DNA of 64,000 bases from an uncultured bacterium (lineage in GTDB: Bacteria > Patescibacteriota > Doudnabacteria > UBA920). The position numbers and the translations under genes are program-made. The notes under the pieces are model-generated. The model had not been told where the DNA came from, did no database searches, and saw nothing but the letters and a program-made list of their open reading frames with translations. How positions within the stretch are numbered: position 1 is the stretch's first letter; every line of letters starts with the position of its first letter. Where the stretch lies: NCBI GenBank assembly GCA_963749445.1, contig CAVVMJ010000005.1:34915-98914 (forward strand), written 5' to 3'. Positions 9,227-62,706 of this stretch are shown piece after piece.

Positions 9227-9270
<44 letters not shown>

Positions 9271-9300
9271 CGAGCTGGGTTCAAAACGTCGTGAGACAGT

Positions 9301-46667: not shown

Positions 46668-47774
46668 TTAATGATTAAAAAATTTATGGTGAAAATAGTT
46701 TCCGTAAGCCTTTACATTTTCATTTAGCAGTCCATCCATGCTATGGGTTGTGCGGATCACCTTAAGCCCATCTCCGGTAAATCTGTCTTTTTTATGAAAT
46801 ACGGCGTCAAGCGCCGGGGCTTTCATAGCTATGCGAATCTGTGAGTTATAATCTACTAAATCAGGCAAAAAATCCCGCGGTGGCCCCTCCAGTAATAAAT
46901 TGAGTTTGCTCCCTACAGAATTTAGCATGTATTTAATGCCGGCCTGGATTATGCGATAGTCTGCCCGGCCATACCGCTGGCAATTTATGGATGCCATTTG
47001 TACGAGTGGGTTGTCCTGTAGCCATTTGACCCACCTGTGAAGTTGCGGCGTGTTTGACCAGTAAACGTGAGGAACAATCGGCAGACCGGCCGCCTCAAAC
47101 AACTCAAAGGATTTTAGGCTCTTTTTTAGGTTGAGTTGTTGCCCGACTACGCATTCGTAGAAGAACACGGAAAAATTTATGGCCGTTACCAAAGCAAAAC
47201 CCATTTTTACCAATCGCTCCGCCAGGCTTAGGCCTTCCTTTTCTTCCCAGGCTTTTTCGATTAGCGTGTCCGCACCCGTCATAAACAGTAGAACTTTTTT
47301 GCCTTCAAAGAACGGTTGTTTTAGTATGTCTTCCCGAAGTTTAATTTTGGGGAGGTGCATCCCTCCAGCGTATACGGACGGCGGCGAAGTGATAATGTCC
47401 TTAAGGGAAACCCCGACGAACTCCGTGTCAACAAGGTCAGAGTTAAACTTAAAGAAATCGCGAGAGACTATTGGAATGTAATTAGGGATATCAATTTCGA
47501 TCTTGTTTTTTGCAATCACGGAATTAAAGCCTAAACCATCAATTTTGTCTATTGTCGACTGAAGGCCAGGGTTTTGGCAGGTTATGATGTTCGTGGCGAT
47601 TGAGCCGCACGAGCCGCTAACCTGTTCCGCTTCACGGGCAAGTACATAGGGCTCAAATTCCCCTTTGGAAGCACGACAGTTTTTTGGGTACAGCGGTAAC
47701 TCAGATTGTGCGGCGGAAGTCACCATAGGCATCCTTTCCTTTCCTACGGACAGCACCCTGATAGCGTACCCCAC
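46668..47774 (-). CDS. Hypothetical protein (368 aa) with no recognisable family, divergent from the XRE/ImmA pair
   Basis: Protein-like ORF. The 460-bp upstream region is shared with the divergently transcribed XRE gene. Confidence 0.45.
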   Translation of the reverse strand: MGYAIRVLSVGKERMPMVTSAAQSELPLYPKNCRASKGEFEPYVLAREAEQVSGSCGSIATNIITCQNPGLQSTIDKIDGLGFNSVIAKNKIEIDIPNYIPIVSRDFFKFNSDLVDTEFVGVSLKDIITSPPSVYAGGMHLPKIKLREDILKQPFFEGKKVLLFMTGADTLIEKAWEEKEGLSLAERLVKMGFALVTAINFSVFFYECVVGQQLNLKKSLKSFELFEAAGLPIVPHVYWSNTPQLHRWVKWLQDNPLVQMASINCQRYGRADYRIIQAGIKYMLNSVGSKLNLLLEGPPRDFLPDLVDYNSQIRIAMKAPALDAVFHKKDRFTGDGLKVIRTTHSMDGLLNENVKAYGNYFHHKFFNH

Positions 47775-48242
47775 CTTTTATACAGAGTAAAATCAGGGGA
47801 GCTTGGCGAGACGTCAGGATTGCGATCTTGGCGACGCCAGCGTATATTTCAATTTTGTCTTTTACGATTACGAGTGTCAATTTTGTCCCCGCCGGTAACG
47901 CCGGGCGTTCCGGAAGCTTTGCGACAAATGATACTGGGCAGACACTCGGATTAAAGTTTTGTTTTTGTGAAGACACGCTTCCTGCCACCCCTTGACTCTT
48001 CGTTGGGGTTGTAGCCGCATGGACGCTCGGTGCGCCCACATCCGACGGCTTCCTTTTCCCTGAACCTGAACCCATAAATTTCCTTTCGACGGATTGGCTT
48101 GACCATCCGCGTAAATAATGTTAATTTGTATACAGGAGGTAAACCAAATATACAATCTTAATCTGTATGATAACATATCCTTTTGTATAGTCAAGGGCTT
48201 TTCCAAGACAAATACTAAGGATTTTATAATTCAACCTTAAAT

Positions 48243-48563
48243 ATGCAGGAAATTAGCAAATATATTGGCAAGAAAATACGCGATATAAGGGAAGAAAAAG
48301 GTGTTACTCAAAAAGAACTAGGGGAATTATTAAGCTATTCCCCCATGGGAATATCCCATTTTGAAAATGGCATACGCGATCTTAGACTTTCGGACATAAA
48401 GAAACTGGCCGAATATTTTAAGGTCGATTTGTCTTACTTTTTACCTGAGGGGAGCAACCCAGTACCAGAACCCACTTTTTTTAGGGCAGACGCGTCTAAC
48501 GATCCCCATGTAGAAAAATCGCTTGATGATTTTGATGCTTACTTGAATAAACTACAAAAATAA
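48243..48563 (+). CDS. XRE-family helix-turn-helix transcriptional regulator
   Basis: IRDIREEKGVTQKELGELLSYSPMGISHFENG Cro/C1-type HTH. Confidence 0.75.
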   Translation: MQEISKYIGKKIRDIREEKGVTQKELGELLSYSPMGISHFENGIRDLRLSDIKKLAEYFKVDLSYFLPEGSNPVPEPTFFRADASNDPHVEKSLDDFDAYLNKLQK

Positions 48564-49040
48564 ATGAACAATCACAGGTCATACATAGAAGAATTGGCAA
48601 ATAAAGCTTTGGAGAGTGGCGGCTGCACAAAGCCGCCCGTACCAGTAGAGGACATCGCCAAAAAAATTGGTTTGACGGTGGTTATGTTTGATTTCCCCCA
48701 GACAATTTCTGGCGTGTTAAAAAAAGAAAAAAAAGCTATTGGAGTAAATCAAAACCACCACCCGTTGAGAAGAAGGTTCACAGTTTCTCATGAGTTGGGC
48801 CACTTCCTTCTTGGTCATGAAGGATACAAGGACGAAGAATTTATTGATGACAGGTTTGATCGGCCCATCCCTCTGGAGAGGGAGGCTAACCTTTTTGCTT
48901 CTTTTTTGTTAATGCCTAAAAAGTGGGTCGAGGAGAGTATTAAAAAAAATGGTATGGAAATTCCAAGGCTGGCCAAGGAATTCCAGGTTAGTGAGCAGGC
49001 CATGACTATAAGATTATTAGAACTAAACTTGATAAAATAA
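48564..49040 (+). CDS. ImmA/IrrE-family metallopeptidase (DUF955)
   Basis: HELGHFLLGH HEXXH motif. It is adjacent to and co-oriented with the XRE gene, the classic XRE-ImmA module. Confidence 0.75.
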   Translation: MNNHRSYIEELANKALESGGCTKPPVPVEDIAKKIGLTVVMFDFPQTISGVLKKEKKAIGVNQNHHPLRRRFTVSHELGHFLLGHEGYKDEEFIDDRFDRPIPLEREANLFASFLLMPKKWVEESIKKNGMEIPRLAKEFQVSEQAMTIRLLELNLIK

Positions 49041-49087
49041 AACAGCCGCCCTGTAGGGGCGGTTGTTTATAAACCTTTAAAATTAAT

Positions 49088-51505
49088 TTACTTTGGTATA
49101 GGCGTGGCATTTATCTCAAGCACCTTCATCACTTCATCTCCATAATGGTTAATTACCTTTACAGCTATCTTGCCAGTTTTAGGTTTTGGGAATGGACGGG
49201 ATACTGTGGAATATAACTCGTCCCAGGATTCTTCGCTAATATCAGCCTTTAGGGCTTTCTTAAGTTTTTCGTAAGGCTTGTCTGCACCAAGAAAGTAAGC
49301 GTGAGTAATAAAAAACGCTTCGCTGTTATAGTTGGTATCTATGAACCATGCCGCTATTTCGTGTTCTGTATCCCCAGAGCCACTGGAACGAATTTCGCTT
49401 TTGACTGGATCGTAAATATCTACGCCCATTACCTCCACCACCACACCGTCTTTGGTCTCTTTGACTTTTACGTCCGGTTCACCGAAGGCGAGGAATAAGT
49501 TACCTGAACCGGTCTTCTTGAGCAAATCACCCATGGACAAATCCGGATTGATTTTCACTTTCATTATTTGTAATCCATTTGATTGTGTACCTTCTGAAAA
49601 CGCAGAAGCTTCAAATGACGTGGCGGCAACAACTAAAAGATCGGCAAATTTTTTGGCAACTGTAGCGGCGTCACGGATGAAATCGTCATCTACACTACCG
49701 AATTCAGGGCCGATAGAAACCGCCACTTTTTTGAGTCCGTTATTCGTTTTATATTCTCCAACAGCTTGCACTTCTGGACCGCTTGGTAAAATATCCAAAT
49801 TTACAAACTCTACTCGCGCGCCTTTTTCACCAGTTTGTACGCCGGATTTTAAAAGATTACTGACAACAGTTTCCGCAAATCTTTCGGAAGACAACATCTC
49901 CTGTGCGTCAGAAACGCGATGCGGAGAAAGTGATTCAACGGTAAAAGGTCCAGTTACACGAACAACATTTTTATTTTCAGTAGGTTGATCATATAGAATC
50001 TCCTGCTCCGCCGCTTCATCATTGGCAAGCGATTTTAAGGTTATATGAGGCACATTTTTATATTCAAACCCAGCCGAAACAATGTGTTCGTCTATGAGTT
50101 TGTAATATGGAAATTTGGCAGTCATTAAACGAGTCCTTGCGAGGGCCAATGAAACACGCGAAGTATCAATTGTAATCCAGCGTCTGCCCCACTGCTCGGC
50201 TACAAAAGCAGTTGTGCCGGAACCGCAAGTTGGGTCGAGTACAATATCTCCCGGGTCTGTGGTCATTAATAAACATCTTTCCACTACAAAATTTGAGGTT
50301 TCAACAATGTAACTCCTTTGACTTGGTCCATTTGTGTCATACCAAAAATTAGTAATTTTTTGATAAGGAAAATCGGAACTAAACATTGCATAAGAGAGGC
50401 TTTGACCCTCTGACTTTATACGGTCCAATTTTATTAATTTCTCTAATTTATCTTTTTCAACAATCCAACTAAACCCGCGTGGAAAAGAGTACTCCTTACC
50501 TTTAAAACTAATGGAATAATCATTCCCAGAAGAATATCCTGGAGCTCTTAATGAAACTAATCTGTACCAATCACCGCGCTCATCTTTGTTCCACCTTGAT
50601 TTATTATCCGGGATATACTCTTGATAAAGTTGTCTATATTTTAACCTTTCTTTATCTTTTCCATACCAAATGATAAAATCATTCATTGTATCTAAATATT
50701 TAGCACCTAATGGCATTGTTTTTTTTCTAAATGGAATTAGCGAGACAAAATTATCTGGACCAAAAACTTCATCTATTACATTTCTAACAAGATGAACATT
50801 TTCCTCGTTGATTTGAACAAAACAACTTCCGCTCTCAGTTAACAGCTCGCGCACCACTAATAGACGATCTCGTAAATAAGAAAGGTAGGAATGGATTCCA
50901 AGTTCCCATGTATCACGAAAAGCCTTAACCTGCTCGGGTTGACGGATAAAATCCTCCAATTTATTGTCTTTCACATCTCGGTTACGTGTGGATACCTGCC
51001 AATTGGAACCAAACTTAATACCATACGGTGGATCAATATAAATTGTTTGCACCCTACCGCGCATTCCCTCTTTTTCCAACAAACTATTCATCACAAGTAG
51101 TGAATCACCCAGAACCATCCGATTCTGCCAATTGTCCTCGTGCTTGTAAAAATCTACGGCTTTGCTAAATTGCGCTTCGGCCGTTTCACCAAAAAGCATC
51201 TGCTGTGAATTATCACTGGTACCTGCTTTGAGACGAGCAATAATTGCCTCGGGTGCTATTTTTTCCTGTACATAAATAGGTACCGTTGGCACGGCAAACT
51301 CGGTTCCTTGTTCTTGTTTTCCAGCCCAAACAAGCTGGGGGTCAAGCGACGGATCGTAAGCATAATGCGTTTTTACTGGCTGTTTATCACGGGCAGAAAG
51401 TTTAACGGATTCTTCTTGCGTAGGAATACGTACGCGTTTGGCGTCATGCGTGTATGATTTTACGGGTGCGGCGGTAGTTGGTTGTGATATTTTTTTCTTT
51501 GGCAT
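49088..51505 (-). CDS. mod: Type III restriction-modification N6-adenine DNA methyltransferase (Mod-like, beta class) with an extended C-terminal region
   Basis: YIDPPYGIKF (motif IV) precedes DPTCGSGTT (motif I), the permuted beta arrangement. There are about 370 aa after motif I. Confidence 0.8.
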   Translation of the reverse strand: MPKKKISQPTTAAPVKSYTHDAKRVRIPTQEESVKLSARDKQPVKTHYAYDPSLDPQLVWAGKQEQGTEFAVPTVPIYVQEKIAPEAIIARLKAGTSDNSQQMLFGETAEAQFSKAVDFYKHEDNWQNRMVLGDSLLVMNSLLEKEGMRGRVQTIYIDPPYGIKFGSNWQVSTRNRDVKDNKLEDFIRQPEQVKAFRDTWELGIHSYLSYLRDRLLVVRELLTESGSCFVQINEENVHLVRNVIDEVFGPDNFVSLIPFRKKTMPLGAKYLDTMNDFIIWYGKDKERLKYRQLYQEYIPDNKSRWNKDERGDWYRLVSLRAPGYSSGNDYSISFKGKEYSFPRGFSWIVEKDKLEKLIKLDRIKSEGQSLSYAMFSSDFPYQKITNFWYDTNGPSQRSYIVETSNFVVERCLLMTTDPGDIVLDPTCGSGTTAFVAEQWGRRWITIDTSRVSLALARTRLMTAKFPYYKLIDEHIVSAGFEYKNVPHITLKSLANDEAAEQEILYDQPTENKNVVRVTGPFTVESLSPHRVSDAQEMLSSERFAETVVSNLLKSGVQTGEKGARVEFVNLDILPSGPEVQAVGEYKTNNGLKKVAVSIGPEFGSVDDDFIRDAATVAKKFADLLVVAATSFEASAFSEGTQSNGLQIMKVKINPDLSMGDLLKKTGSGNLFLAFGEPDVKVKETKDGVVVEVMGVDIYDPVKSEIRSSGSGDTEHEIAAWFIDTNYNSEAFFITHAYFLGADKPYEKLKKALKADISEESWDELYSTVSRPFPKPKTGKIAVKVINHYGDEVMKVLEINATPIPK

Positions 51506-51507
51506 AA

Positions 51508-54500
51508 TTATTCCTTAGTAAATAAATTATCCGGTATGAGGTTATCAAAACCTCTTGCCATACCGGCGCGAATAATATTTTGCGTCTCGTGTATATCCTG
51601 CACTTCAAGGATCGCCCACTTGCCGTATTTACCGATATTATTAATTGCTGGCACCCAAAGATCTTGCGTGGTTTTTATTTTCATCTTTTTTTTATCATCT
51701 TTCTTGCCAGTTACTTCTATAAGCAAATTTAATTTTGATTTATCTGGCATTTCCAGAACAGCTATAAAATCGGGCACATAATGATGAGATATGCCTTGAT
51801 GTTCGTAGGGAATAGTAAAGCCAAGACTTTGATTTTTAACATAAGCAAGAATCTCTGGCATTTGTTCCAATTTTTTAGCAACTCCTTGTTCCCATTCTTC
51901 AGTATCGGCCACCACGTAATTTATGTGGCTCTTAACTGTTTCGCGGACTGGTTTGGTTGTCAAAAAATCTACATATTGAGTGGAGCCCAGAGTATCGTAT
52001 GGTGCGAGAATTGGTAACAGCCTTTTGTCTTTTTGGTCTTCTAGATTTTCAGCAATAATGGCTTGTTGGATTTTAGTTAGAGCACCAGAGAAATATTCGC
52101 CAATGGAGAGGTAGCCTATGACCATTCGATCCTTTAAAACTACATACTTTTTGACATATTCCTCGGCAATTTTGCGCAATTGCGGGGTGAGCCAATATTT
52201 TTCGTTGCCTTCGGCATCGGTATAGTATCGTTTAAGAAGCGCCTGCGTGAGGCGGATGATTACTTCACCATCGCGACGTTCTCTAATCTTTTCTAAATTT
52301 TCTTTGACTTCCTCGCCGATTACGCCGCTACTTGTAACCTCAGTCGGTTCATTTTCAATAATAGTTTTTGATTCTTCAGAAAAACGGGCGATAAGTTTGG
52401 TCTCGTTGAGTTCGTAACGATAACCGTCGACACGCGGGTAGGTAATTTCGTATTGTTCACGGTCAGGGAGCGCATGGACACGATGAATGACTTTAGGCGG
52501 TTGTGGTGGCGTATTACCCTCGGCTTTTAGGAAGCTAAACGGTACGCCATAGACTTCGGCATATTCCGGCGTAAATTTTTCTATACCGTCTTCGGGATCA
52601 ATGGTAGTTGAATAATCTACCCGGCGCAGAGCGCGACCGACGACTTGCTCGCAAAGAAGTTGAGTAGAAAATGCGCGTACACCAAGAACATGAGTCACTG
52701 TGTTCACGTCCCAACCTTCCGTAAGCATAGAAACGGAAACAACGCATTTGATATCTTCTCCAAGCTTTCCAGGTTTGCCCACTGTGTTCATTATCTCACG
52801 TAGAAGCTCCTCGTCTGTCGGTTCGTCCCGCCCAGGGAAACGCTTGCGGTAATCTTTATGAAAGTCCTCAATTTCTTTAGTAAAAATTTGTTTAAAATCA
52901 TCGTTAACTTTTTCTCCACTTTCAATCTGAGCACTGTCAATAATGAGGGTGTTTGGACGATCGTAAAACCGCACACCATCTTCATTGCGAAATATATCCA
53001 AATTTCCCTTTTCAATCTTAAATTGACCACTGGCAGTTTCCCGTTCATAGCCAGCAATCCAACGATAAACCAATTCCGATACAGCGGTGTTGTTGCATAC
53101 GACTATCATAACCGGAGGCATGACATTTCGATCGTCTTTTTTATGTTTTAGGTACGGTTGATAGTATTTCTTATCGTAATTTCCGTATAGAGATTCCAAG
53201 GCCTCTTGCAATTTAGTTGGCAAAGTATTTGACGATAAATAATCCTTCCCGCCAGTCTTTAGTCCCTTTTTGGGCAAATCATCCCGGACATGAAGCCACA
53301 AATTTCTGAATTCCGGTTCATCATCTTTTGAGACGGTATCTGATTCAATCGGAAGTCGAGGAATTTTTACAATACCGCATTCTAAAGCGTCCAAAAGTGA
53401 AAAATCATAAATTGCCCACGGGAACATAGTGCCTTCCTGATAGCCGGAACCACGCAAAAAATAAGGCGTCGCCGAAAGATCAATTACCGCATTAACATTA
53501 ATTTTCTTTGCCAATGCTTCAATACCACTAATCCATACGCGGGCCGCTTTATTGTTTTCGTCTGCTTCTTTCCTCTCTTCTCCGGACAATTTTTCCTCGC
53601 TTGGCTTTTCGCGATAACAGTGATGAGCTTCATCATTGATTACCAAAACTCGTGGTTTACCTAAAACACTTTTGAATGCACGATTAACCATCGCGTTTGG
53701 AGTTTCTTTGATAGCTTCTTCTTTTAATAATCCTGTCGCTTTCATAACCGCGCCGACTTGGAATCGTGGGTTTTGTCTTAGTTCAAGCTGATGAAAGTTT
53801 GTAATAAAAACAGTGGCTTGTTGCAGCAAATCAAAATCTTGATATGAAACTATATCGCGTTCACGATAATAATTTTTTGGGTCGTTTGGCAAAAGAACAT
53901 TTAAGCGGTCGCGAATAGTAATGCCCGGTGTGATTATCACAAATGCGTCAGTAAATCGAGTATCTTGAGGATAACGAATTTTGTTAAGTGTATGATAGGC
54001 AATAATCATTGCCATGACGACCGTCTTCCCGGAGCCAGTTGCCATTTTAAAAGCCAAACGGTACAGACCGGGATTTGCATCTGTGTTGGCTTTTTTTAAT
54101 TCATTGATAATCCAATTTTCACCAGATTTTTCTGCCACCTCATTAATGTATATCAAAGTCTCCAGCGCTTCTATTTGGCAGAAAAAAAGTTTGTTTTCCC
54201 TAGTTTCATCACGCCAATAAGAAAGTAGATCGCGGGATGTTTTAGTAATACCTGAATATTCCGACCCTCGCCATTCTTTTATTTTTGCTCTGACTTTATT
54301 TATAAACTCGTTTTCTTTTTGAAGTTCAGTACCGAAAGCGCCGTCGGCAATATTTAAGTCGAGCTGTTTTTGTTTGGTTTTAGCCCTGGGAACGGGAATA
54401 TAAAAGCTGCTCGGGCGACGAGTATCTAATATTTCATCAGTGATCCCGCGGTCATCTGCCTTGAAATGGCGACTGGGTTCAATATATGGCGAGTTTAAAA

Positions 54501-54552
54501 TTGGATTTTTCATGAGGGGTGTGACAATGTAAAACTGACTTAATTTTAGCAC
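51508..54552 (-). CDS. res: Type III restriction enzyme Res subunit (SF2 DEAH helicase plus C-terminal PD-(D/E)XK nuclease)
   Basis: ATGSGKT Walker A, VINDEAHH DEAH box, MLTEGWDVNTVTHVLG motif VI, and C-terminal YVPDFIAV...EVTGKK nuclease motif. It lies upstream of mod, which is an unusual order. Confidence 0.8.
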   Translation of the reverse strand: MLKLSQFYIVTPLMKNPILNSPYIEPSRHFKADDRGITDEILDTRRPSSFYIPVPRAKTKQKQLDLNIADGAFGTELQKENEFINKVRAKIKEWRGSEYSGITKTSRDLLSYWRDETRENKLFFCQIEALETLIYINEVAEKSGENWIINELKKANTDANPGLYRLAFKMATGSGKTVVMAMIIAYHTLNKIRYPQDTRFTDAFVIITPGITIRDRLNVLLPNDPKNYYRERDIVSYQDFDLLQQATVFITNFHQLELRQNPRFQVGAVMKATGLLKEEAIKETPNAMVNRAFKSVLGKPRVLVINDEAHHCYREKPSEEKLSGEERKEADENNKAARVWISGIEALAKKINVNAVIDLSATPYFLRGSGYQEGTMFPWAIYDFSLLDALECGIVKIPRLPIESDTVSKDDEPEFRNLWLHVRDDLPKKGLKTGGKDYLSSNTLPTKLQEALESLYGNYDKKYYQPYLKHKKDDRNVMPPVMIVVCNNTAVSELVYRWIAGYERETASGQFKIEKGNLDIFRNEDGVRFYDRPNTLIIDSAQIESGEKVNDDFKQIFTKEIEDFHKDYRKRFPGRDEPTDEELLREIMNTVGKPGKLGEDIKCVVSVSMLTEGWDVNTVTHVLGVRAFSTQLLCEQVVGRALRRVDYSTTIDPEDGIEKFTPEYAEVYGVPFSFLKAEGNTPPQPPKVIHRVHALPDREQYEITYPRVDGYRYELNETKLIARFSEESKTIIENEPTEVTSSGVIGEEVKENLEKIRERRDGEVIIRLTQALLKRYYTDAEGNEKYWLTPQLRKIAEEYVKKYVVLKDRMVIGYLSIGEYFSGALTKIQQAIIAENLEDQKDKRLLPILAPYDTLGSTQYVDFLTTKPVRETVKSHINYVVADTEEWEQGVAKKLEQMPEILAYVKNQSLGFTIPYEHQGISHHYVPDFIAVLEMPDKSKLNLLIEVTGKKDDKKKMKIKTTQDLWVPAINNIGKYGKWAILEVQDIHETQNIIRAGMARGFDNLIPDNLFTKE

Positions 54553-54559
54553 TTTTTGA

Positions 54560-54648
54560 GAAAATAATCACTTCACAGAGATGGCCTTTGAATGTTATAC
54601 TTTAGGTACAATTTATGCCTAAACTTTGGGGAAACCCGGGGCATGGCG
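54560..54648. repeat. 89-bp inverted repeat, left copy (IR-L). Its partner lies at 61893..61981
   Basis: GAAAATAATCACTTCACAGAGATGGCCTTTGAATGTTATACTTTAGGTACAATTTATGCCTAAACTTTGGGGAAACCCGGGGCATGGCG versus the reverse complement of 61893..61981. There are a handful of mismatches. Confidence 0.6.
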
Positions 54649-54788
54649 CAGAAAAACGAGAAAAACATAAAGACGGTCATCTGTCTTGCTTTACGTTTTT
54701 CTCGTTACCAGCCGAAAGGTTGGTAGACCCGCAAGGGTCGGGCAAGCGGGTGGCCCTTTTTGTTTGCCCGCGGAAAGACCAATCAGCC

Positions 54789-55817
54789 ATGAAAAAAATA
54801 ATTGTGTTAAGTTTTCTTGTTACGTTACTGGCTGCGGCTTGCAACAAGGCTGTCACTAAAAATGGCGAGGCGTCTCAGCCCCAAAAGCCAACGCAAACTC
54901 AAGCGGCAACTTCCACAACCCAAACCGCGACGACCACTTCAGGTTCTGACAACTTTGCCCCCGAGCCTTACACAATAGACTCAGTCAACAAATTGGCTGC
55001 CAAATTGGCTGCCAAGAACGGAGGCAACGCCGCAACCCCAACTAAAGCAACGCCTGCTCCAGTAACCGAACAAGACTTTCGTAGTCAACTTACAGCCTTG
55101 TATCAAGAAAAGATAGGCTTTTTGGATGATAAAATAAAAACTTGGAAACTTACAAAATTTGCGATCGGCTTAGGCATCGACCAAAGCAATAAAGATATTT
55201 CTTTCTACAATCAAAATTGTACTGATACGGGCTATTGCGACCCATATGCCGTTAAAATGTCCCAGTTAGAGCTTGACGAGGATACAAAGTTTTCTGGAAT
55301 TTGGCAAAGCCGCATTGACCAAGGGAGTCAAATTGAACAAAAGTTGAATGACGAATTGACTGCGCTAAACGCAGACAACTCCACGGTACCGCAAGCCGAG
55401 TACGCTCTCCGGCAGAACGAGCTAAACACTCTAGTTAATGAATCCGACATTGAGCAGGCCGACGCTTCCATTAACCAAGCAACTTACTTCACAGCAGACA
55501 AAAAGGCTGAAATTGATAATACAATTTTGTCTCATGCACAAACCGCCAAGGCATGGGCAGACCAACAGCTTGCGACAATCAACGCCGAAGCTCAAACGGC
55601 CGCGCAAAACATTCCGCCAATAGTTACGGCGCCAATAACCACGGTCCCGATTCAGCCGACATCAATCCATTGCAACACCACTGCGGACACACAGATGGGG
55701 TTCCCTAAGAGTGAGACGGAGTGCACGGAGTTTCCGACAATGAAGACGATGGTCTGTAACACTTCCACTTCTGGGTACGGGAGCCTGCAAAAGGATTGTT
55801 ACTTTATAAATCAGTAA
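54789..55817 (+). CDS. Lipoprotein (signal peptide plus LAAAC lipobox), low-complexity Thr/Gln/Ala-rich
   Basis: MKKIIVLSFLVTLLAAAC. The start is chosen at the internal Met. The ORF-track start 54615 lies inside IR-L. Confidence 0.45.
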   Translation: MKKIIVLSFLVTLLAAACNKAVTKNGEASQPQKPTQTQAATSTTQTATTTSGSDNFAPEPYTIDSVNKLAAKLAAKNGGNAATPTKATPAPVTEQDFRSQLTALYQEKIGFLDDKIKTWKLTKFAIGLGIDQSNKDISFYNQNCTDTGYCDPYAVKMSQLELDEDTKFSGIWQSRIDQGSQIEQKLNDELTALNADNSTVPQAEYALRQNELNTLVNESDIEQADASINQATYFTADKKAEIDNTILSHAQTAKAWADQQLATINAEAQTAAQNIPPIVTAPITTVPIQPTSIHCNTTADTQMGFPKSETECTEFPTMKTMVCNTSTSGYGSLQKDCYFINQ

Positions 55818-55834
55818 GATTTTAAGAAAAGCCT

Positions 55835-56008
55835 ATGAAAAAATTATTAGCGATGATGAAGTCCAAACCCGGGGAAACGCCGGAGCGATTTGCACAGCGA
55901 GTTCAACAGAGCTTGAAAGAACGCGGATTGCTGGACGAACAGGGTAAACTAAAAGATTCCCAAAAAGAATACGAGGAATGGCTTCGGCGCGTATTTGGTC
56001 TTAAATAA
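55835..56008 (+). CDS. Small hypothetical protein (57 aa)
   Basis: ORF MKKLLAMMKSKPGETPERFAQRVQQSLKERGLLDEQGKLKDSQKEYEEWLRRVFGLK between two lipoprotein genes. Confidence 0.25.
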   Translation: MKKLLAMMKSKPGETPERFAQRVQQSLKERGLLDEQGKLKDSQKEYEEWLRRVFGLK

Positions 56009-56050
56009 AGCCAGCGGGTAGCTCTTTGCCCGCAGAAAGTTGAATTAAAA

Positions 56051-56524
56051 ATGAAAAAAATATTATTTGCTTTGCCCTTAATAGTTTTATTAGCCGCTGG
56101 ATGCAACTCAAACTCTGACCAAGTCAGTCAGCTTCAACAACAAAACCAGAAACTCCAAAATCAAATTAACGACATGAACCTCGACGCACAAAGCAAATGC
56201 GCTGACCAGGCGGCCAAAGTTTTTAAGCAGGAAGACTCAACCCCGCAAGTATTTGATAACTACACTGACCACTGGAACAAGAGCATAAATAAGTGTTTTA
56301 TCTTGATGACTTTTAACCAAAACGGCGGCCAGATGACTGACGAAGAATTGATGGATGCTTTTGGGGGCCAGACCTACGGGTCGTATTGGTCTTCTATTAG
56401 CTCGGATTTAAGCAAGAAGAGCCTGGGTTGCAACGTCTACCCGGACGGCACAAATACCAATAGCCAAACATGTACTTCCCAAGAACAATTTGATAGTTTG
56501 GTTAAGCCTTTTATGACTAATTAA
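56051..56524 (+). CDS. Lipoprotein (LLAAGC lipobox), Gln-rich
   Basis: MKKILFALPLIVLLAAGC signal/lipobox. Confidence 0.45.
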   Translation: MKKILFALPLIVLLAAGCNSNSDQVSQLQQQNQKLQNQINDMNLDAQSKCADQAAKVFKQEDSTPQVFDNYTDHWNKSINKCFILMTFNQNGGQMTDEELMDAFGGQTYGSYWSSISSDLSKKSLGCNVYPDGTNTNSQTCTSQEQFDSLVKPFMTN

Positions 56525-56660
56525 AGAAATGCCCTTCCCTTGGCCTTTTGGGTTTTAAACTTGTTTATATAGCAATTGGCTGTTTCTGGGGGCTTCCGTG
56601 GGCAAAGGAAAACACTGAGGAATATGCCCCGTGTTTTTTGACGACAAAAAGTGGTAGAAT

Positions 56661-57284
56661 ATGGTTATGGAAATTAGCAAGAATCATTTGCGTAGTTTAG
56701 ATAGCTTTATTTTGCGGGGAAAATACATATTAACTGCTTGGCCCTCGGAAAGGGACGAGCGATTTAACAAGTGGCTAGGTGAATTACGAGTATTCATACA
56801 TGATTTAGGGGAAGGTTATTATAAGATGTTTACTGATGTAGAGAAAGAAGCCGCTAGTACTTCCAGAGGCGTGGCTGAACTTAAAGTCCCTATAATACTT
56901 AATTTTTTACGCCCTTTAAGAGAGTCCTTGTTGCACAAGTCTAATACAACAAAAGTACCGACTAATTTAAACTCCAAAACCGAAATTAGCATTGGTAAAC
57001 TAACCTCGCATACGGACGGATCCATACGATATGATGGGAATTTCATACGTATGCCTAATCAGCAAAAAGATTTGTGCCGTCTTTTTATGAATAAACCTGA
57101 AAAACTAGTTACCATAGATAGGATTAGAGATGAATTGATACGGGCTGACCGCAGGAAGGAAACAACATTTGCCACAATATCTAAATATGTCAGTAAACTT
57201 CGCAATGTCTTGAAAAATTATTACAAAACGAATGTGCTAATCAACCAGCAAGAAGAAGGCTGGTACTTCCGCCCTCCAAAATAA
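56661..57284 (+). CDS. Putative DNA-binding protein with C-terminal OmpR/PhoB-type winged helix
   Basis: C-terminus QQKDLCRLFMNKPEKLVTIDRIRDELI...ISKYVSKLRNVL...GWYF. Confidence 0.4.
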   Translation: MVMEISKNHLRSLDSFILRGKYILTAWPSERDERFNKWLGELRVFIHDLGEGYYKMFTDVEKEAASTSRGVAELKVPIILNFLRPLRESLLHKSNTTKVPTNLNSKTEISIGKLTSHTDGSIRYDGNFIRMPNQQKDLCRLFMNKPEKLVTIDRIRDELIRADRRKETTFATISKYVSKLRNVLKNYYKTNVLINQQEEGWYFRPPK

Positions 57285-57550
57285 CTTATTCATATGTGAA
57301 AAGTGAATGAATTGACCCCTCTACAATAGAGAGGTCTTTTTAATTATGGAAGTTATTTATGCAGTTGAGCCAGAGCGACCTCGAGGAGTTCAAACAAATA
57401 TATAAGGCCGAAACCGGCCTAGAAATTACGGATGCCGAAGCCGTCGAGCTTGGCAATCGGCTTTTAGGATTGGTTAAATTTGTCCTCTCCGATGACAGGC
57501 CTCCATAATTTAACTTAGCTTTAAGTTTCATTTAACATTAATTTTATTTT

Positions 57551-57766
57551 ATGAACAAAAACTTAACGATGAGAGAAGTTATAAGACAACAAACTGACGC
57601 GTTTATGAAAAAAGTTTGGGATAACCATAAGGCACTTCAGGAGGAAATCCCGTGCGAAGTCAAATTAACCTTCCAATTTGTGGATTCTAAACAAGCCCTC
57701 ACACAATATAAAATCTTGAAATATGACGGCGCAGATGATGAGGATGACGATTACGATTTTATTTAG
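57551..57766 (+). CDS. Small hypothetical protein with acidic tail
   Basis: 71 aa ending DGADDEDDDYDFI. Confidence 0.3.
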   Translation: MNKNLTMREVIRQQTDAFMKKVWDNHKALQEEIPCEVKLTFQFVDSKQALTQYKILKYDGADDEDDDYDFI

Positions 57767-57796
57767 ACTAACATAAATATTATTAACTAAAAAATT

Positions 57797-59125
57797 ATGC
57801 CAGACTCTCAACCAGCAAAACGACAATACACCAAACGCAAAACGGAGGAAAAGGACAAATCTGTAATGGCGGTATCACTTGTAACGCCGGATCATCTTAT
57901 TGAAACCATTTATGACCCCCAGCTCGATATGACTAGCTATGCGGTTTTTGTCCGTCAAACCGGCAAGTGCGAACGCCACGATCAGTTCATTTATAAATCC
58001 ACGACCTACGTTCCACCCGACCGAAACAACCCTCTGGTTAAAAAAGGCTTCGTCCTTCTGGCGTCCCGGCCCAGGCCTTTAATGGAAACGGCTACGCTCT
58101 TAGAGGAAATACGCAAGTTCGTTTCTGATTACCTGACTGTCAGCCCGGAGTTTGAGGAAATCATTCCGTACTTCGTCCTGCTGACCTGGATTTACGACCG
58201 CTTTGACACCGTGCCGTACCTTAGGGCTTTGGGCGACATGGGCAGAGGCAAATCCCGCCTCCTGTTCGTCATGACCGCCTTAAGTTACAAAGCGTTTTTG
58301 GCCAATGGTGCCGCAACAGTCTCCCCGATATTTCGCATACTGGACTCCTGGCACCCGACCTTGATTTTGGACGAAGCCGACTTTAACCGAGCAGATGAGA
58401 AGAGCGAAATTATGAAGATATTCAACAGCGGCTTCGCAAAAAACACCCCGGTCTTACGGAGTGAAGATGACGGCAAGGGCGGATTTACTGTGCGGGCATT
58501 TGACGTCTACGGCCCCAAGATATTCGCTTCCCGCCATCAGTTTGGCGACGACGCTTTGGAAAGCCGTTGCTTTACCCACGACATGGACATGATTGAAAGA
58601 ACATCAAACGTACCGATAAACCTCGACGACAATTTCCGCCAGCGTGGCCTAGAGCTACGCAATAAACTGCTGACTTGGCGATTCCACAACTTTGGCAAAA
58701 TAGAGATCAATCCAAAGCTGACCGACCCGCGCGTAACTGACCGGCTCAACCAAATTTCTTTACCCCTAAAAAGCATCGCTCTGGCAGAGGAAGCCCGCAA
58801 AAAGATTGAAGGTGTAATTTACAGCCTGCACTTGGACATGATTGATTCCCGTGGACTCTCGTGGGACGCAGGGGTATTGCACGCAATTATTACACAAATT
58901 ACCGGCTTAATTGACCCCGAGGAAATAACCGTCAAGATGATTGCCGAGGAATATAACAAAGAGGCGGATGACAAAGACAAACTAACCAACAATAAAGTTG
59001 GCTGGATTTTACGGAAGAAGCTCAAAATAAAAACCGTCCGCCGGGGAGCGGGTTTTACATTGGTTTATGACGACGCTACAAAGCAACGTCTTGAACAACT
59101 AAAGCTAAAATACGGACTGACATAA
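57797..59125 (+). CDS. P-loop NTPase resembling phage/plasmid primase-helicase C-terminal (P4/D5-like) replication proteins
   Basis: Walker A-like GDMGRGKS and Walker B-like LILDEADF. Confidence 0.45.
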   Translation: MPDSQPAKRQYTKRKTEEKDKSVMAVSLVTPDHLIETIYDPQLDMTSYAVFVRQTGKCERHDQFIYKSTTYVPPDRNNPLVKKGFVLLASRPRPLMETATLLEEIRKFVSDYLTVSPEFEEIIPYFVLLTWIYDRFDTVPYLRALGDMGRGKSRLLFVMTALSYKAFLANGAATVSPIFRILDSWHPTLILDEADFNRADEKSEIMKIFNSGFAKNTPVLRSEDDGKGGFTVRAFDVYGPKIFASRHQFGDDALESRCFTHDMDMIERTSNVPINLDDNFRQRGLELRNKLLTWRFHNFGKIEINPKLTDPRVTDRLNQISLPLKSIALAEEARKKIEGVIYSLHLDMIDSRGLSWDAGVLHAIITQITGLIDPEEITVKMIAEEYNKEADDKDKLTNNKVGWILRKKLKIKTVRRGAGFTLVYDDATKQRLEQLKLKYGLT

Positions 59126-59438
59126 CCCCACCAGTGAATCAGTGAATCTCGTGAACCTCCCTTGGAGGATATATACTTGTAAGCCTATATGTCTCCGTGT
59201 TTTAATTTATTTGGGAGTTTTTGAAATATTAAACAAAGAAAAATAATATGACGAGCGTCCAAAAAAATAAGTTAATTAAAGTAGCTAAAAAGTTGCTTTG
59301 GGGGTTGAGTGAAGAAATTGCGGCTAAGGTCGATGCCGCAATGCCGACGGCCACGGAAAAGGAAAGGGAGACGGCTGATGAGTTCGTTTGGCAGGAATTA
59401 TTTAGGCAAGCAAAGCTAAAATAATTAACTTCTATGGA

Positions 59439-59903
59439 ATGACTATGGAACAAAAAACACCACAAGCCAACCAATTTACCGGCGATCCCCGGCAGGACAA
59501 GATGTGGGAATATTACATCCAGGGCATCATGCGCGGCCAAAAAAATGCCTTTCAAGCGGCAATACTGGCCGGGTACAGCAAAAGCTATGCCAACGTTATT
59601 ACCATGTTGGGTTGGTTTAAGGACAGGGAGGTTAAATTGAGGCGAGCTGGTTTTTTAAGCAGAGCCGAAGAAGTTTTGGACGAAGCGCTAGAATTGGAAA
59701 CGCACAGACCTGACGGCACGCGCGACATTAACAGCTTAAGGATAAAGGCAGATGTGGCCAAATACGTTACTTCCACGCTGGGCAAGGAATTTTACAGCAA
59801 GCGCACGGAGCTGACGGGCAAGAATGGAGAGCCTGTAATTCCCATTTTAGGGGATTTGAAGGTTCCTGACGGTTCAAGCAATGTTATAAAAGACCAAAGT
59901 TAA
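59439..59903 (+). CDS. Phage terminase small subunit-like protein
   Basis: QAAILAGYSKSYANVITMLGW matches the TerS (Terminase_2/P27-like) HTH signature. Confidence 0.5.
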   Translation: MTMEQKTPQANQFTGDPRQDKMWEYYIQGIMRGQKNAFQAAILAGYSKSYANVITMLGWFKDREVKLRRAGFLSRAEEVLDEALELETHRPDGTRDINSLRIKADVAKYVTSTLGKEFYSKRTELTGKNGEPVIPILGDLKVPDGSSNVIKDQS

Positions 59904-59907
59904 GAAT

Positions 59908-61545
59908 ATGTTAAATCAAACTAAAAAATATTTCATCTATTCCCGAAAGTCTACGGAATCGGAAGAACGTCAAATCCTTTCGATTGATTCCCAAATTAAG
60001 GAGTTGCAGGAGTTGGCCGTCCGGCGTGGCTTTCGGATTGTTAAAATATTCCGGGAGTCTCAATCCGCGAAAGAGCCTGGCCGTCCCGTGTTTGCAAAGA
60101 TGATGGAGGGCATTGCTAACGGCGACGCCAGCGGCATTCTTTGTTGGAAGCTTGACCGCTTGGCTCGTAATTCTGTGGACGCTGGCGCCATAATTTGGGC
60201 GCTCAAAGATAAAGGCATTGAAATAAACACGCCTACACAGAGTTACAGCCATGCCGATGAGAATAGCATTTTGATGTATTTGGAATTTGGGATGAGCCAG
60301 AAGTACATCGACGACTTGTCTAAAAACGTAAAGCGCGGTTTAAAGACAAAAGTCGGGCAGGGTTGGATGCCCGCTTTTGCCCCGATTGGCTACATAAACA
60401 CTCGGCTGGCTGACAGAGGGGTCAACACTATCGTTCCCGACCCCGAACGTTTTCCTTTGGTGCGGCAGGCTTGGGATTTTATGCTTACGGGGCTTTACAC
60501 ACCCCAACAAATTGTTGACAAATTAAACAAGGAGCTTGGTTACCGATCAAGACCGACAAAGAATTGCCCAAGCAGGCCGCTCGGCGACACCACGATTTAT
60601 AGAACTTTCAACAATCCGTTTTATTTTGGAATGTTCCGTTATAATGACCAGCTCTGCGAAGGGCATCACGAACCAATGGTTTCCAAAGCGGAATTTGATC
60701 GCGTCCAAGTGCTTTTGCACAAACGCGAGAACCCTCGCCCCATAAAGTACAGTTTCACCTATGGCGGGTTAATTCGGTGCGCCTGTGGCTTAAGTATAAC
60801 CGCGGAGAAGCGCGTTAAGCACCAGCAAAACGGGAACACGCACGAATACACTTATTACCACTGCACAAAGTCAAAAGTGCCACGCTGTGCCGAGCAATCC
60901 ATTTCAGAGGAGGAGTTGGAGGCCGAAATCGACAGGGTAGTGTCGGAGTTGGAAATCTCGCCGAAATTTCGGGACTGGGCTTTTTCCAAACTTCAAAAAA
61001 TGAATGAGCAAGAATCGGCCGGGCGGCGGGAGTTGTTAGCCCGTCAACGCAAGGCTTACGATGAATGTTTAAAAAAGATTGACGGGCTGATAGAAATGCG
61101 CGCGGCTAAGGAGATTGGCGCGGAGCAATTTAAAAGCAGGAATGACGCCTTACTTGCTGAAAAGGGGCGGCTGAACGAGGCATTAAACGGCACGGACGAG
61201 TTGGTTTCCGACTGGGTAAAAAAAGCCGAAGCCGCTTTTGATTTTGCTACTCTGGCTAGGAAACGTTTTGTTAAGGCAAGTCCGGAAAAGCGTCGTGAGT
61301 TTGTTGCGGCTATGTCCGAACCTTCGAACCTCATTTTAAATAACAAAACACTCGATTTTATAAAGAGTAGTCCGCTGTTTGTGATTAAAAAAGCCGTAAA
61401 GGGCCACAAGGAAGTTAAGCCAACCTTCGAACCTCTTTTTAATACGGCGGACAAACGTAAAGGCCACCCTTTAGGGGTGGCCAATTCACGATGGCTCGGG
61501 AGGTGGGATTCGAACCCACGACCCATCGGTTACACCTACCCTTAA
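59908..61545 (+). CDS. Large serine recombinase (resolvase catalytic domain, recombinase domain, zinc ribbon)
   Basis: YSRKSTESEERQILSIDSQ catalytic serine region, DRLARN, and a C-terminal Cys cluster CACG...HC...C. Its 3' end runs into the tRNA 3' exon. Confidence 0.8.
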   Translation: MLNQTKKYFIYSRKSTESEERQILSIDSQIKELQELAVRRGFRIVKIFRESQSAKEPGRPVFAKMMEGIANGDASGILCWKLDRLARNSVDAGAIIWALKDKGIEINTPTQSYSHADENSILMYLEFGMSQKYIDDLSKNVKRGLKTKVGQGWMPAFAPIGYINTRLADRGVNTIVPDPERFPLVRQAWDFMLTGLYTPQQIVDKLNKELGYRSRPTKNCPSRPLGDTTIYRTFNNPFYFGMFRYNDQLCEGHHEPMVSKAEFDRVQVLLHKRENPRPIKYSFTYGGLIRCACGLSITAEKRVKHQQNGNTHEYTYYHCTKSKVPRCAEQSISEEELEAEIDRVVSELEISPKFRDWAFSKLQKMNEQESAGRRELLARQRKAYDECLKKIDGLIEMRAAKEIGAEQFKSRNDALLAEKGRLNEALNGTDELVSDWVKKAEAAFDFATLARKRFVKASPEKRREFVAAMSEPSNLILNNKTLDFIKSSPLFVIKKAVKGHKEVKPTFEPLFNTADKRKGHPLGVANSRWLGRWDSNPRPIGYTYP

Positions 61546-61821
61546 ATTTCTTTAAGGAGTGGACTATATCATCATCCTGTCTGGCTCGTCATGTGGGATT
61601 CGAACCTAAAGGATGCGAGGCGCTTCCCATCCGCCTATGGCGGAAAGTACTCCCGTAAAGGGATAGTCTCTGAACCTTCCCCAAAAGTTGGGGCTTGGCT
61701 GCTGATTGCCATTTTAAAGGCTTCCAGCAATTCACCTCGTGTTTCCATTCTCAATTACTTGAGAAGGCTGCAACTTATGTATTACAGCCGATTGCTCTAC
61801 CGCTGAGCTACTCCCGAACGA
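61497..61821 (-). tRNA. tRNA-Asn (anticodon GUU) interrupted by an approximately 250-nt group I intron in the anticodon loop
   Basis: 5' exon TCGGGAGTAGCTCAGCGGTAGAGCAATCGGCTGT (61821..61788). 3' exon TAACCGATGGGTCGTGGGTTCGAATCCCACCTCCCGAGCCA (61537..61497). The acceptor strands TCGGGAG/CTCCCGA pair. The intron guide GCAGCC pairs with exon GGCTGT with a terminal U:G. The intron ends in G and has P7-like AGACTA / ATAGTCC. Confidence 0.6.
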
Positions 61822-61892
61822 TTCACTTTCTATGATATCTTAACAGTTTATGCGGTTTTTATCAACCCTTCGCGATTTACTGTACCCAGTTC

Positions 61893-61981
61893 CGCCATGC
61901 CCTGGGTTTCCCCGAGGTTTAGGCATAAATCGTACCTAAAATATAACATTTAAAGGCCATTTTTGTGAAGTGATTATTTTC
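61893..61981. repeat. 89-bp inverted repeat, right copy (IR-R), immediately upstream of the intron-containing tRNA
   Basis: Reverse complement of IR-L. Confidence 0.6.
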
Positions 61982-62037: not shown

Positions 62038-62706
62038 ATGGATTCATTCAAGGAAATTGCTTATAAAGTTTTAAAAAGGGCGCACAGACCGCTTCACAGT
62101 AATAAGATAACCGAAATCGCTTTAGATCGTGGCTGGCTGAAAACTGCCGGTAAAACACCAGCGGCAACCATGAACGCGCAGCTTGTTACGGACATCGGGG
62201 ATAATGGTAATAAGTCAAAATTTATTCAAACGGGAAAATCAACTTTTTATTTACGCAAATATATGAAAAAGCACAAGCATAAGCACCCAAACGGCAACCG
62301 TGGCGTATTGATTAAGGGAATGTCTAAACTTTTGCCTAGCGATATATTAACCGATCCGGTGTTTAAGGAAAGTCTGGAAAAGCTGATGCGGGGCTATGGC
62401 GGCATCTATGCCTTGTATAAAGGTGAAAAACTTTTTTATGTGGGGTTAGCCACAAGTTTGCATGGCAGAGTTAAATGGCACCTTAGAGACAGATTAAAAG
62501 GCAAATGGAATAATTTTAGAATTTTCAGAATTCGCAGAGTAAGATTCCTTAAAGACCTTGAAACTTTAATTTTGAATATCATTATGCCTAAAGGCAATCG
62601 TGCAAAAGGCCATTTAGCCAAGGATGGCGATTTAAATCTTATCTTACGGAAAGTTTTAAGGGAATATGAAACAAGAATAAAACCCATAAGAAAGGCTTTG
62701 AGATAG
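62038..62706 (+). CDS. HARE-HTH (Mrr_N-like winged helix) fused to a GIY-YIG nuclease domain
   Basis: The N-terminus EIAYKVLKRAHRPLHSNKITEIAL is HARE-HTH-like. GIYALYKGEKLFYVGLATSLHGRVKWH is GIY-YIG. The gene is AT-rich. Confidence 0.55.
   Translation: MDSFKEIAYKVLKRAHRPLHSNKITEIALDRGWLKTAGKTPAATMNAQLVTDIGDNGNKSKFIQTGKSTFYLRKYMKKHKHKHPNGNRGVLIKGMSKLLPSDILTDPVFKESLEKLMRGYGGIYALYKGEKLFYVGLATSLHGRVKWHLRDRLKGKWNNFRIFRIRRVRFLKDLETLILNIIMPKGNRAKGHLAKDGDLNLILRKVLREYETRIKPIRKALR

Follow-up and report, generated by a model that had tools for sequence, protein, structure and literature searches.

Group I introns have been known in the anticodon loops of bacterial tRNA genes since 1990, namely in those for tRNA-Leu(UAA), tRNA-fMet, tRNA-Ile(CAU) as well as tRNA-Arg(CCU). 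The tRNA introns of Azoarcus, Agrobacterium and the cyanobacteria and plastids belong to subgroup IC3, which in the Michel-Westhof classification is compact and has no helices between P7 and P3'. Archaeal tRNA introns are normally of the bulge-helix-bulge type and are spliced by proteins. The 3' ends of tRNA genes are also the sites of genomic islands and prophages, which in the classical cases rely on tyrosine integrases and are bordered by direct repeats of the 3' end of the tRNA. The anticodon-loop introns have been reviewed (PMC3984707), including those of Azoarcus tRNA-Ile(CAU), Agrobacterium tRNA-Arg(CCU) and cyanobacterial and plastid tRNA-Leu(UAA), and a cyanobacterial tRNA-fMet intron with an intron-encoded endonuclease is on record (Biniszkiewicz 1994; Bonocora and Shub 2001, as cited in PMC8450103 and PMC3984707). 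All 39 archaeal group I introns reported by Nawrocki, Jones and Eddy (2018, PMC6125680) interrupt rRNA genes, the tRNAscan-SE 2.0 paper mentions group I introns of tRNA-fMet and tRNA-Ile2 only, and the statement nearest to the case considered here is that the tRNAs of complete Patescibacteria genomes 'had Group I introns' (PMC8172020). Here, we analysed 64,000 nucleotides (positions 34,915 to 98,914 of contig CAVVMJ010000005.1, hereafter the window) from an uncultured member of the Doudnabacteria, in which a tRNA-Asn(GUU) gene is very probably interrupted after U35 by a bona fide group I intron and is overlapped at its 3' end by the gene of a large serine recombinase.

A preliminary description, made from the letters of the window, had proposed this intron in the anticodon loop of tRNA-Asn(GUU), between exons of 34 and 41 nt about 250 nt apart. 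All of this holds on the minus strand, with an intron of 251 nt (Table 1); the span given there (61497–61821) captured the feature, with coordinates off by 4 to 5 nt at each end. When introns were allowed, ARAGORN returned unaided a 75-nt tRNA-Asn(gtt) with a 251-nt intron ('gctgt-Intron-taacc'), and the exons joined by hand gave the identical tRNA. The 5' exon (61817–61784) reads TCGGGAG TA GCTC AGCGGTA GAGC A ATCGG CTGT and the 3' exon (61532–61492) reads TAA CCGAT GGGTC GTGGG TTCGAAT CCCAC CTCCCGA G CCA. All four stems of the joined molecule are perfectly paired, including the acceptor strands, whose predicted complementarity is Watson-Crick at 7/7 positions. In the predicted spliced product GGCUGU is followed directly by UAACCGAU, giving the anticodon loop CUGUUAA and the anticodon GUU.

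The identity of the tRNA and the position of the junction were considered together. An ARAGORN scan of nearby exon-end combinations indicated that a 7-nt anticodon loop is arithmetically possible with several junction pairs. Readings as tRNA-Tyr, tRNA-Thr or others from alternative junctions were rejected, the U.G wobble in P1 and the terminal G of the intron coinciding at U35/U36 alone. Identities other than Asn were likewise discarded, as the discriminator G73, the short variable loop and the intronless orthologues fit Asn alone; bacterial tRNA-Tyr in particular is excluded because the variable loop is short. The joined tRNA has U1-A72 together with G73, both of which are Asn features, as in Escherichia coli tRNA-Asn. 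Its exons are collinear with the intronless tRNA-Asn genes of three loci encoding homologues of the recombinase (L001, L161 and L165), and the uninterrupted tRNA-Asn(GTT) of L001, which stands beside the closest recombinase homologue, is nearly identical to them. A promoter-like site precedes the 5' exon and a terminator-like hairpin follows the 3' exon (Table 1). The arrangement upstream of the L001 tRNA-Asn is similar to the promoter-like site of the window, and L001 has a hairpin of different sequence at the same place after the tRNA. The split gene is the sole asparagine tRNA gene within the window, and it is invisible both to ARAGORN with default settings, which reports a tRNA-Ser alone in the whole window, and to the Rfam tRNA model at the locus.

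The intervening sequence matches the Rfam model RF00028 (Intron_gpI) at 61540–61793 of the minus strand with 109.3 bits (gathering score 50; E = 1.7e-27). The match spans model positions 1–253 and is not truncated, with all core elements intact and aligned at high posterior probability. The intron-aware tRNA search and the Intron_gpI search, both named as checks in the preliminary description, were thus positive. The guide pairing put forward there, and with it the splice site after U35 and the loop CUGUUAA, is borne out by P1, in which GGCUGU pairs with GCAGCC (GGCUGUAAU/GUUGCAGCC) and U35 (61784) stands opposite G61771 as a U.G wobble. At the other end, G61533 lies directly before the TAA of the 3' exon. 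The unconstrained minimum free energy (MFE) fold of the 326-nt precursor recovered the acceptor, D and T arms as well as P1, P2, P3, P4–P6, P8 and P9, and the MFE fold of the intron alone has z = −4.4 relative to shuffled sequences. Two extra hairpins are present between P7 and P3', and the loop of P8 carries a tRNA-like insert.

The intron has numerous relatives at the same site. We scanned one genome per GTDB species with the pattern TAGCTCAG-N1-3-GGTAGAGC-N6-CTGTAAB, which covers the 5' exon and the junction, and obtained at least 119 loci. A script then sought 3' exons consisting of G/TAA, the complement of the gene's own anticodon stem, a T arm and the complement of its own acceptor strand. 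Among the 119 loci listed, to which the counts and carriers below refer, at least 97 are split tRNA-Asn genes with a matching 3' exon 192–898 nt downstream. All 97 have the CTGT/...G/TAA junctions with an intron-terminal G, and both P7 strands are present in 95 of them. RF00028 scored 15 of the 18 family loci tested at 63–102 bits, and the three that it missed have long insertions. In a MAFFT alignment of 45 compact members, including that of the window, the RNAalifold consensus contains 49 pairs, 40 of which show compensatory double changes (in the anticodon stem, P2, P3, P4, P6, P8 and P9). The CUGU/GCAG pairing of P1, with its U.G wobble, is invariant in the 45/45 aligned members; P7 is uninformative for covariation because it, too, is invariant. 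The closest relative among the matches listed, L004, has the same acceptor stem and a nearly identical intron core, and its C28-G42 pair corresponds to U28-A42 in the window, a compensatory change across the intron.

The listed carriers include Patescibacteria (Saccharibacteria, Kaiser-, Collier-, Doudna- and Magasanikbacteria, Paceibacteria), cyanobacteria (the cultured Microseira wollei NIES-4236, Floridaenema, Argonema and Aerosakkonema), Nitrospira and other Nitrospirales, Bdellovibrionales, Syntrophales and other deltaproteobacteria, Planctomycetia, Omnitrophota, Chloroflexota, Binatia and Marinimicrobia, as well as DPANN archaea. Long members contain open reading frames (ORFs), as in L084 (199–721), L018 (2455–2956), L104, L002 and L066 (1–300), and also in L043 and L093. 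One Patescibacteria member has an HNH ORF (Pfam 22.7 bits, cut-off 21.4), and ORFs of the form CxxC...HH...CANCH that resemble it occur in archaeal members and in a Doudnabacteria metagenome-assembled genome (MAG; L066). The HNH-type endonuclease proteins are very similar between the bacterial and archaeal members, and cyanobacterial members encode a 215-aa protein with a LAGLIDADG_2 domain (1.6e-25). From the covariation and the endonuclease ORFs we conclude that the family is under structural selection and is at least partly mobile. It is a large, horizontally mobile family that occupies the same site in many phyla, and the window copy is a member without an endonuclease gene.

The archaeal members come from MAGs of Pacearchaeota, Nanoarchaeota and Woesearchaeota (L018, L042, L062 and L097, and also L002, L037, L080 and L104). 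Their tRNA-Asn genes are of the G1-C72 type, do not encode CCA and are split at U35/U36, and the interruptions score 72–82 bits on Intron_gpI. In L062, the gene of a KRR1-type KH protein directly adjoins the split tRNA, and an intein-containing MCM gene lies within the same 8-kb stretch of a 565-kb contig. Like the archaeal introns of PMC6125680, these are Rfam-type group I introns in DPANN and other archaea; unlike them, the tRNA-Asn relatives are located in tRNA genes. On balance, we lean towards a cross-domain mobile lineage, for which we found no report, that targets U35/U36 of tRNA-Asn(GUU) in many bacterial phyla, among them Patescibacteria, Cyanobacteria, Nitrospirota, Bdellovibrionota, Planctomycetota, Omnitrophota and Chloroflexota, and in DPANN. 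No earlier report of a group I intron in an archaeal tRNA gene would then precede its archaeal members.

Small ORFs that by eye resemble GIY-YIG nucleases stand on either side of the split tRNA-Asn in L004 (6276–6545 and 7078–7335). In the window, a gene at 62038–62706, divergent from the tRNA, encodes a HARE-HTH domain with a weak match to GIY-YIG_2 (E = 1e-4). These genes could be free-standing nucleases tied to the locus.

The window intron shares with those of Azoarcus, Agrobacterium and tRNA-Leu a compact form without an ORF, the location in the anticodon loop, a P1 formed from the anticodon stem-loop, the U.G wobble and the terminal G. The tRNA arms can also fold in the precursor, and guanosine-dependent self-splicing would be expected by analogy. 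It differs from these introns in its host, tRNA-Asn(GUU), in the insertion site 35/36, and in the two P7–P3' hairpins and the tRNA-like P8 insert of the window copy. As to subgroup IC3, the short members of the family (192–222 nt) look compact like the Azoarcus intron, whereas the window copy and many of its relatives have the two hairpins between P7 and P3'. With the tRNA-fMet intron, as far as it is portrayed in the sources cited above, the family has in common a sporadic distribution and homing endonucleases in some members, implying lateral transfer; it differs in the tRNA, in its HNH or LAGLIDADG ORFs and in a range that extends beyond cyanobacteria to Patescibacteria, Nitrospirota, other phyla and archaea. 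Neither the 2014 review (PMC3984707) nor full-text literature searches yielded a group I intron at 35/36 of tRNA-Asn(GUU), although specialists or database tables may hold such introns, and the main text of a 2025 intron database paper contains none either. The locus is therefore best described as an ordinary splicing mechanism in a host gene for which no report was found, with a serine-recombinase island and an unexplained P8 insert as extras.

Splicing would proceed by the conventional group I route. The tRNA-Asn gene would be transcribed from its own promoter into a precursor of about 326 nt, in which the acceptor, D and T arms could fold, and GGCUGU on the 5' side of the anticodon stem-loop would pair with the intron guide GCAGCC to form P1 with the U35.G wobble. 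An external guanosine would then attack after U35, and the freed 3'-OH of U35 would attack after the terminal G (61533), joining the exons in the loop CUGUUAA and releasing the intron. Several points weigh against this account. Splicing, recombinase activity and the attachment (att) site are all deduced from sequence; the P10 pairing is weak on inspection; the P8 insert is not explained; and a second, intronless tRNA-Asn gene may lie elsewhere, since the window covers 64 kb of the genome. In a rival reading, the intron would be a dead relic that no longer splices, in a cell that uses another tRNA-Asn gene outside the window. That so limited a part of the genome is visible and that the unusual P8 insert could disturb folding would both suit a relic. 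However, the core elements are all intact and the score of 109 bits exceeds that of any of the 15 scored family members, the acceptor, D, anticodon and T stems are perfect across both exons, the change at 28-42 relative to L004 is compensatory across the intron, the gene has both a promoter-like site and a hairpin resembling a terminator, and P8 is a peripheral element that varies widely among family members. We therefore regard decay as very unlikely, and a functional split tRNA-Asn(GUU) gene as the far better explanation.

The insert in the P8 loop, noted previously as an internal copy of the T-arm sequence, is indeed such a copy. Positions 61582–61606 (GGTTCGAATCCCAC ATGACGA GCCA) are identical to the tRNA 3' end (61492–61516) at 22/25 positions: 14/14 in the T loop and T stem, where the 14-mer GGTTCGAATCCCAC is exact, 4/7 in the acceptor strand and 4/4 in GCCA. 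With up to 2 mismatches, GGTTCGAATCCCAC has 3 matches in the window (0.34 expected), a number reached in 0/100 shuffles. In the fold, GGUUCG pairs with CGAGCC, so that the P8 helix is longer. This genome alone had the copy among the sequences searched: an ordinary hairpin occupies this position in L004, and GGTTCGAATCC was found inside the intron in none of the 97 family members among the matches listed. Searches of metagenome and viral contigs gave no match to an exact 23-mer of the copy; the looser pattern GTTCGAATCCNNNATGACGAG had 40 matches in these collections, none of them a tRNA.

One alternative takes the internal GGTTCGAATCCCACATGACGAGCCA for the genuine 3' half of a tRNA. Either the exons would then be wrongly assigned, the contradiction that the preliminary description had foreseen, or the locus would contain another split tRNA that overlaps the first. 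The form of the segment, a T loop and T stem followed by 7 nt and GCCA, together with its 22/25 identity to a real tRNA 3' end, is what lends this idea any appeal. The rest of a tRNA is missing: ARAGORN found 0 tRNAs when the 5' exon was joined to the copy at 35 junctions, the acceptor strands pair at 4/7 positions, the T-stem 5' strand is lacking (TTAGG stands against the CCCAC strand) and the complementary TCGTCAT was not found upstream. Furthermore, a search by E-value with Rfam placed no tRNA model at the copy, the full-length match to the intron model has the segment within its P8 helix, and metagenome and viral collections yielded no real tRNA with the 3' end of the copy (ATGACGAGCCA; acceptor strand ATGACGA-G). 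We consider this reading hardly credible and retain the 41-nt 3' exon.

As to how the copy arose, duplication of a 90-nt unit in tandem was rejected, similarity on inspection not extending beyond the 25-mer. The three differences from the tRNA cluster within 4 nt, and the chance that all of them fall in the 7-nt acceptor segment is C(7,3)/C(25,3), or about 0.015, which makes simple decay of a recent self-copy an uncomfortable explanation. A donor tRNA within the window's own genome, which is not part of the collections searched, is possible. The segment could stem from short ectopic copying into a peripheral loop that tolerates it, represent the remnant of a recombinase attachment arm, or be a functional T-loop or pseudo-attB. 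That it serves as a T-loop module or as a pseudo-attachment site for the neighbouring recombinase we hold to be less likely than the cross-domain lineage.

The recombinase gene is intact (Table 1). In its resolvase domain, R13-K14-S15 is invariant among 14 aligned homologues and was taken as the catalytic serine motif. The overlap of a serine recombinase ORF with the 3' exon, described earlier, is real and extends further: running on the opposite strand, the ORF covers the entire 3' exon, and its stop codon (61543–61545), the location of which had been put forward for checking, lies not in a tRNA exon but 11 nt beyond the 3' splice site, within the intron. Translation from the W codon at 61492 (TGG, which is CCA in antisense) gives WLGRWDSNPRPIGYTYP before the stop; this peptide is encoded by the strand opposite the acceptor strand, T arm, variable loop and anticodon stem plus 13 nt of the intron. 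Since the ORF reads through the tRNA terminator and the 3' exon, the last 18 residues of the recombinase are simply antisense tRNA and intron. Consistently, conservation in the 14-member alignment continues up to [F/L]EP (E508 is invariant) and is followed by about 20 variable residues and then, in many members, by ...WLRGxDSNPxP, which is the antisense translation of the tRNA acceptor strand and T arm. The WLRGxDSNPxP ends of many database recombinases (P0002–P0060) are therefore an annotation artefact and not a protein motif. Whether [F/L]EP (DNA GGTTCGAA) might be what is left of a T loop or an att core was also considered and rejected, as its behaviour in homologues with LEP (GGTTCTAA) is that of a protein motif.

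A direct repeat of 21 nt, AACCTTCGAACCTC[A/T]TTTTAA, lies within the 3' part of the recombinase ORF (61319–61339 and 61422–61442; 95% identical, 103 nt apart). The second copy encodes FEP, and both copies hold the T-loop-like palindrome TTCGAA.

The arrangement of recombinase and tRNA recurs. The closest homologue (L001, 60% identity) overlaps the intronless tRNA-Asn(GTT) mentioned above, and those of L161 and L165 overlap a tRNA-Asn(GTT) found by ARAGORN. That of L163 runs into a tRNA with a CTGTTAA loop (tRNA-Asn) that is cut by the contig end, that of L164 (58% identity) overlaps a tRNA-Trp(CCA) (L164:4593–4664), and that of L162 ends in a T-arm-like sequence at the contig end. All 6 homologous loci are thus at a tRNA 3' end or T arm, 4 of them tRNA-Asn, 1 tRNA-Trp and 1 T-arm-like, and the tRNA-Trp of L164 indicates that the recombinase family has switched tRNA targets at least once. 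The contigs of L162 and L163 end within the tRNA, which would be expected of an element carried by part of the population only.

The genes beyond the tRNA differ among the homologous loci (SprT; rpoD-dnaG; a protein of the 23S_rRNA_IVP family, PF05635), while the recombinase side carries genes of mobile-element type (Rep_O, primase, HTH). The genomic island proposed for the window would extend over about 15 kb or more downstream of the tRNA with the recombinase gene at its edge, and its probable cargo (Table 1) includes ORFs without annotation in addition to those listed. Because the recombinase family habitually sits at tRNA 3' ends, mainly those of tRNA-Asn, the island is most likely integrated at the tRNA-Asn 3' end, a conclusion based on the recurrent arrangement and not on mapped att sites. 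The integrase gene at the edge next to an intact tRNA 3' end and the restriction-modification cargo are shared with islands at tRNA 3' ends; unlike in the classical ones, the enzyme is a large serine recombinase and a repeat of the tRNA end was not found in the window. The overlap had earlier been called the usual signature of an element integrated at a tRNA. Integration is supported by the 5 of 6 homologous loci that enter an identifiable tRNA 3' end; the 'usual signature' is a trait of tyrosine integrases, and the window has no direct-repeat boundaries.

It speaks against integration that neither an att direct repeat nor a second, left boundary nor a match to an empty site was found for the island within the window. 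Given a serine recombinase, however, the lack of another copy of the tRNA end is as expected. L004, which has no recombinase beside its tRNA, diverges from the window right after CCA, and its genome is too distant to serve as the empty site. The missing repeats and boundary, together with an ORF tail that is clearly non-functional read-through, might instead mean that recombinase and tRNA are ordinary convergent genes, neighbours by chance with an over-extended ORF call. Such a coincidence is highly improbable, as the arrangement recurs in 6/6 homologous loci from different organisms with different genes beyond the tRNA, and the cargo is of mobile type: the window has type III restriction-modification genes and a Peptidase_M78 gene, and the homologous loci have Rep_O and primase genes. 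L004 (intron without recombinase) and L001 (recombinase without intron) also imply that intron and island are independent acquisitions.

Integration leaves room for a refinement in which crossover fell within the tRNA gene itself, in a segment such as the T arm or the acceptor strand, so that the element supplied the present 3' end and the terminator of a hybrid tRNA. The distance from [F/L]EP to CCA is constant, at about 20 codons without indels, in the homologues adjoining tRNA-Asn, and the hairpin of the window has a counterpart of different sequence at the corresponding place in L001, which suggests that tRNA-proximal DNA travels with the element; the contig breaks inside the tRNA in L162 and L163 would agree with a hybrid. 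On the other hand, the acceptor 3' strands of the window and L004 are identical and similarity ends exactly after CCA, which a junction at or just beyond the tRNA end explains equally well. The hybrid is thus a tentative variant that we do not favour over insertion at the tRNA end. Serine recombinases need a core of 2 bp only, and hence the crossover cannot be placed from sequence.

If these assignments are correct, tRNA-Asn is systematically missed by standard annotation in the carrier genomes. As tools of the tRNAscan type miss it, Patescibacteria and DPANN genomes apparently devoid of tRNA-Asn may carry a split copy, which bears on completeness checks and on claims about translation capacity. 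The short list of bacterial tRNA group I introns gains a host gene and an insertion site, with a family large enough for covariation analysis. The same site in DPANN points to intron traffic between co-occurring ultrasmall bacteria and archaea, and the DPANN members bear on the idea that group I introns have been displaced from archaeal tRNA genes. Splicing is directly testable, since the split gene occurs in cyanobacteria that are in culture (Microseira wollei NIES-4236, Floridaenema, Argonema). The recombinase family, with its habitual place at the 3' ends of tRNA-Asn genes, is a candidate source of serine integrases that target tRNAs.

Table 1. Coordinates of the features described in the window, with the basis of each assignment.
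Feature	Position	Strand	Description	Basis
tRNA-Asn 5' exon	61784..61817	−	34 nt: acceptor 5' strand, D arm, anticodon stem 5' strand, C32 U33 G34 U35	ARAGORN intron mode, in-silico splicing, alignment to intronless L001 tRNA-Asn
tRNA-Asn 3' exon	61492..61532	−	41 nt: U36 A37 A38, anticodon stem 3' strand, variable loop, T arm, acceptor 3' strand, G73, encoded CCA	ARAGORN, in-silico splicing
Promoter-like site for tRNA gene	61837..61865	−	TTGATA, 17 nt, TAAGAT; ends 20 nt upstream of 5' exon; putative function	Consensus scan, 9/12 matches
Terminator-like hairpin	61462..61482	−	GGCCACCC CTAAA GGGTGGCC then T-rich tail; 9 nt after CCA, within recombinase ORF	Terminator scan
Group I intron	61533..61783	−	251 nt, no ORF, terminal G at 61533	Rfam RF00028 full-length, MFE fold, family covariation
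P1 guide strand	61774–61766	−		Rfam alignment and folds
P2	61765–61748	−	7-bp stem, GUAA loop	
P3	61739–61733 with 61622–61616	−	CGAGGUG/CGCCUCG	
P4–P6				Aligned to Rfam model, recovered in fold
P7	61669–61664 with 61566–61562	−	AGACUA with UAGUC	
P8 hairpin	61573..61615	−	Loop carries 25-nt copy of tRNA 3' end	
P9	61559–61539	−		
Large serine recombinase gene	59908..61545	+	545 aa, intact	Resolvase PF00239 7e-23, Recombinase PF07508 3e-10, Zn_ribbon_recom PF13408 7e-6
Probable cargo of integrated element	46668..59903		Extent tentative	BLASTP of window ORFs against homologous recombinase loci, Pfam, Rfam
Two-gene module common to window and L001	46668–48075			BLASTP
Peptidase_M78 (IrrE-like) gene	48564–49040			Pfam
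Type III restriction-modification methylase	49088–51505	−		Pfam
Res-type helicase/endonuclease	51508–54552	−		Pfam
LOOT RNA	54616–54739	+	73.8 bits	Rfam RF03000
23S group I intron with LAGLIDADG ORF	8393–8574 (3' part)		ORF 8023–8550; 37 bits	
23S group I intron	9272–9522		62 bits	

The 23S rRNA gene of the window (5037–9996) is about 2 kb longer than the model and contains two group I introns. The P7-like blocks said in the preliminary description to be common to the tRNA intron and these two introns are present in all three, with AGACTA/ATAGTCC at 8510/8547 and 9412/9495 in the 23S gene and AGACTA and TAGTC in P7 of the tRNA intron (Table 1). Directly upstream of the 23S gene lies ligA (2052–4136), with no 16S gene. 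LigA is 79% identical to a protein named Candidatus Doudnabacteria, and the other named proteins among its best 120 matches are mostly from Patescibacteria.

Two non-coding features were noted in and around the island. A LOOT RNA near the homologous recombinase of L001 (2886–3001, minus strand, 83 bits) parallels the one in the window, and a sub-threshold LOOT-like match (61854–61925, minus strand; 21.5 bits, E = 0.1) lies just upstream of the promoter-like site of tRNA-Asn; a connection between LOOT and this element family is possible. Finally, a non-coding segment of about 110 nt occurs twice near the possible left part of the island (45049–45159 and 46332–46444; 82–84% identical, 1283 nt apart), and these segments could be regulatory or related to a boundary.

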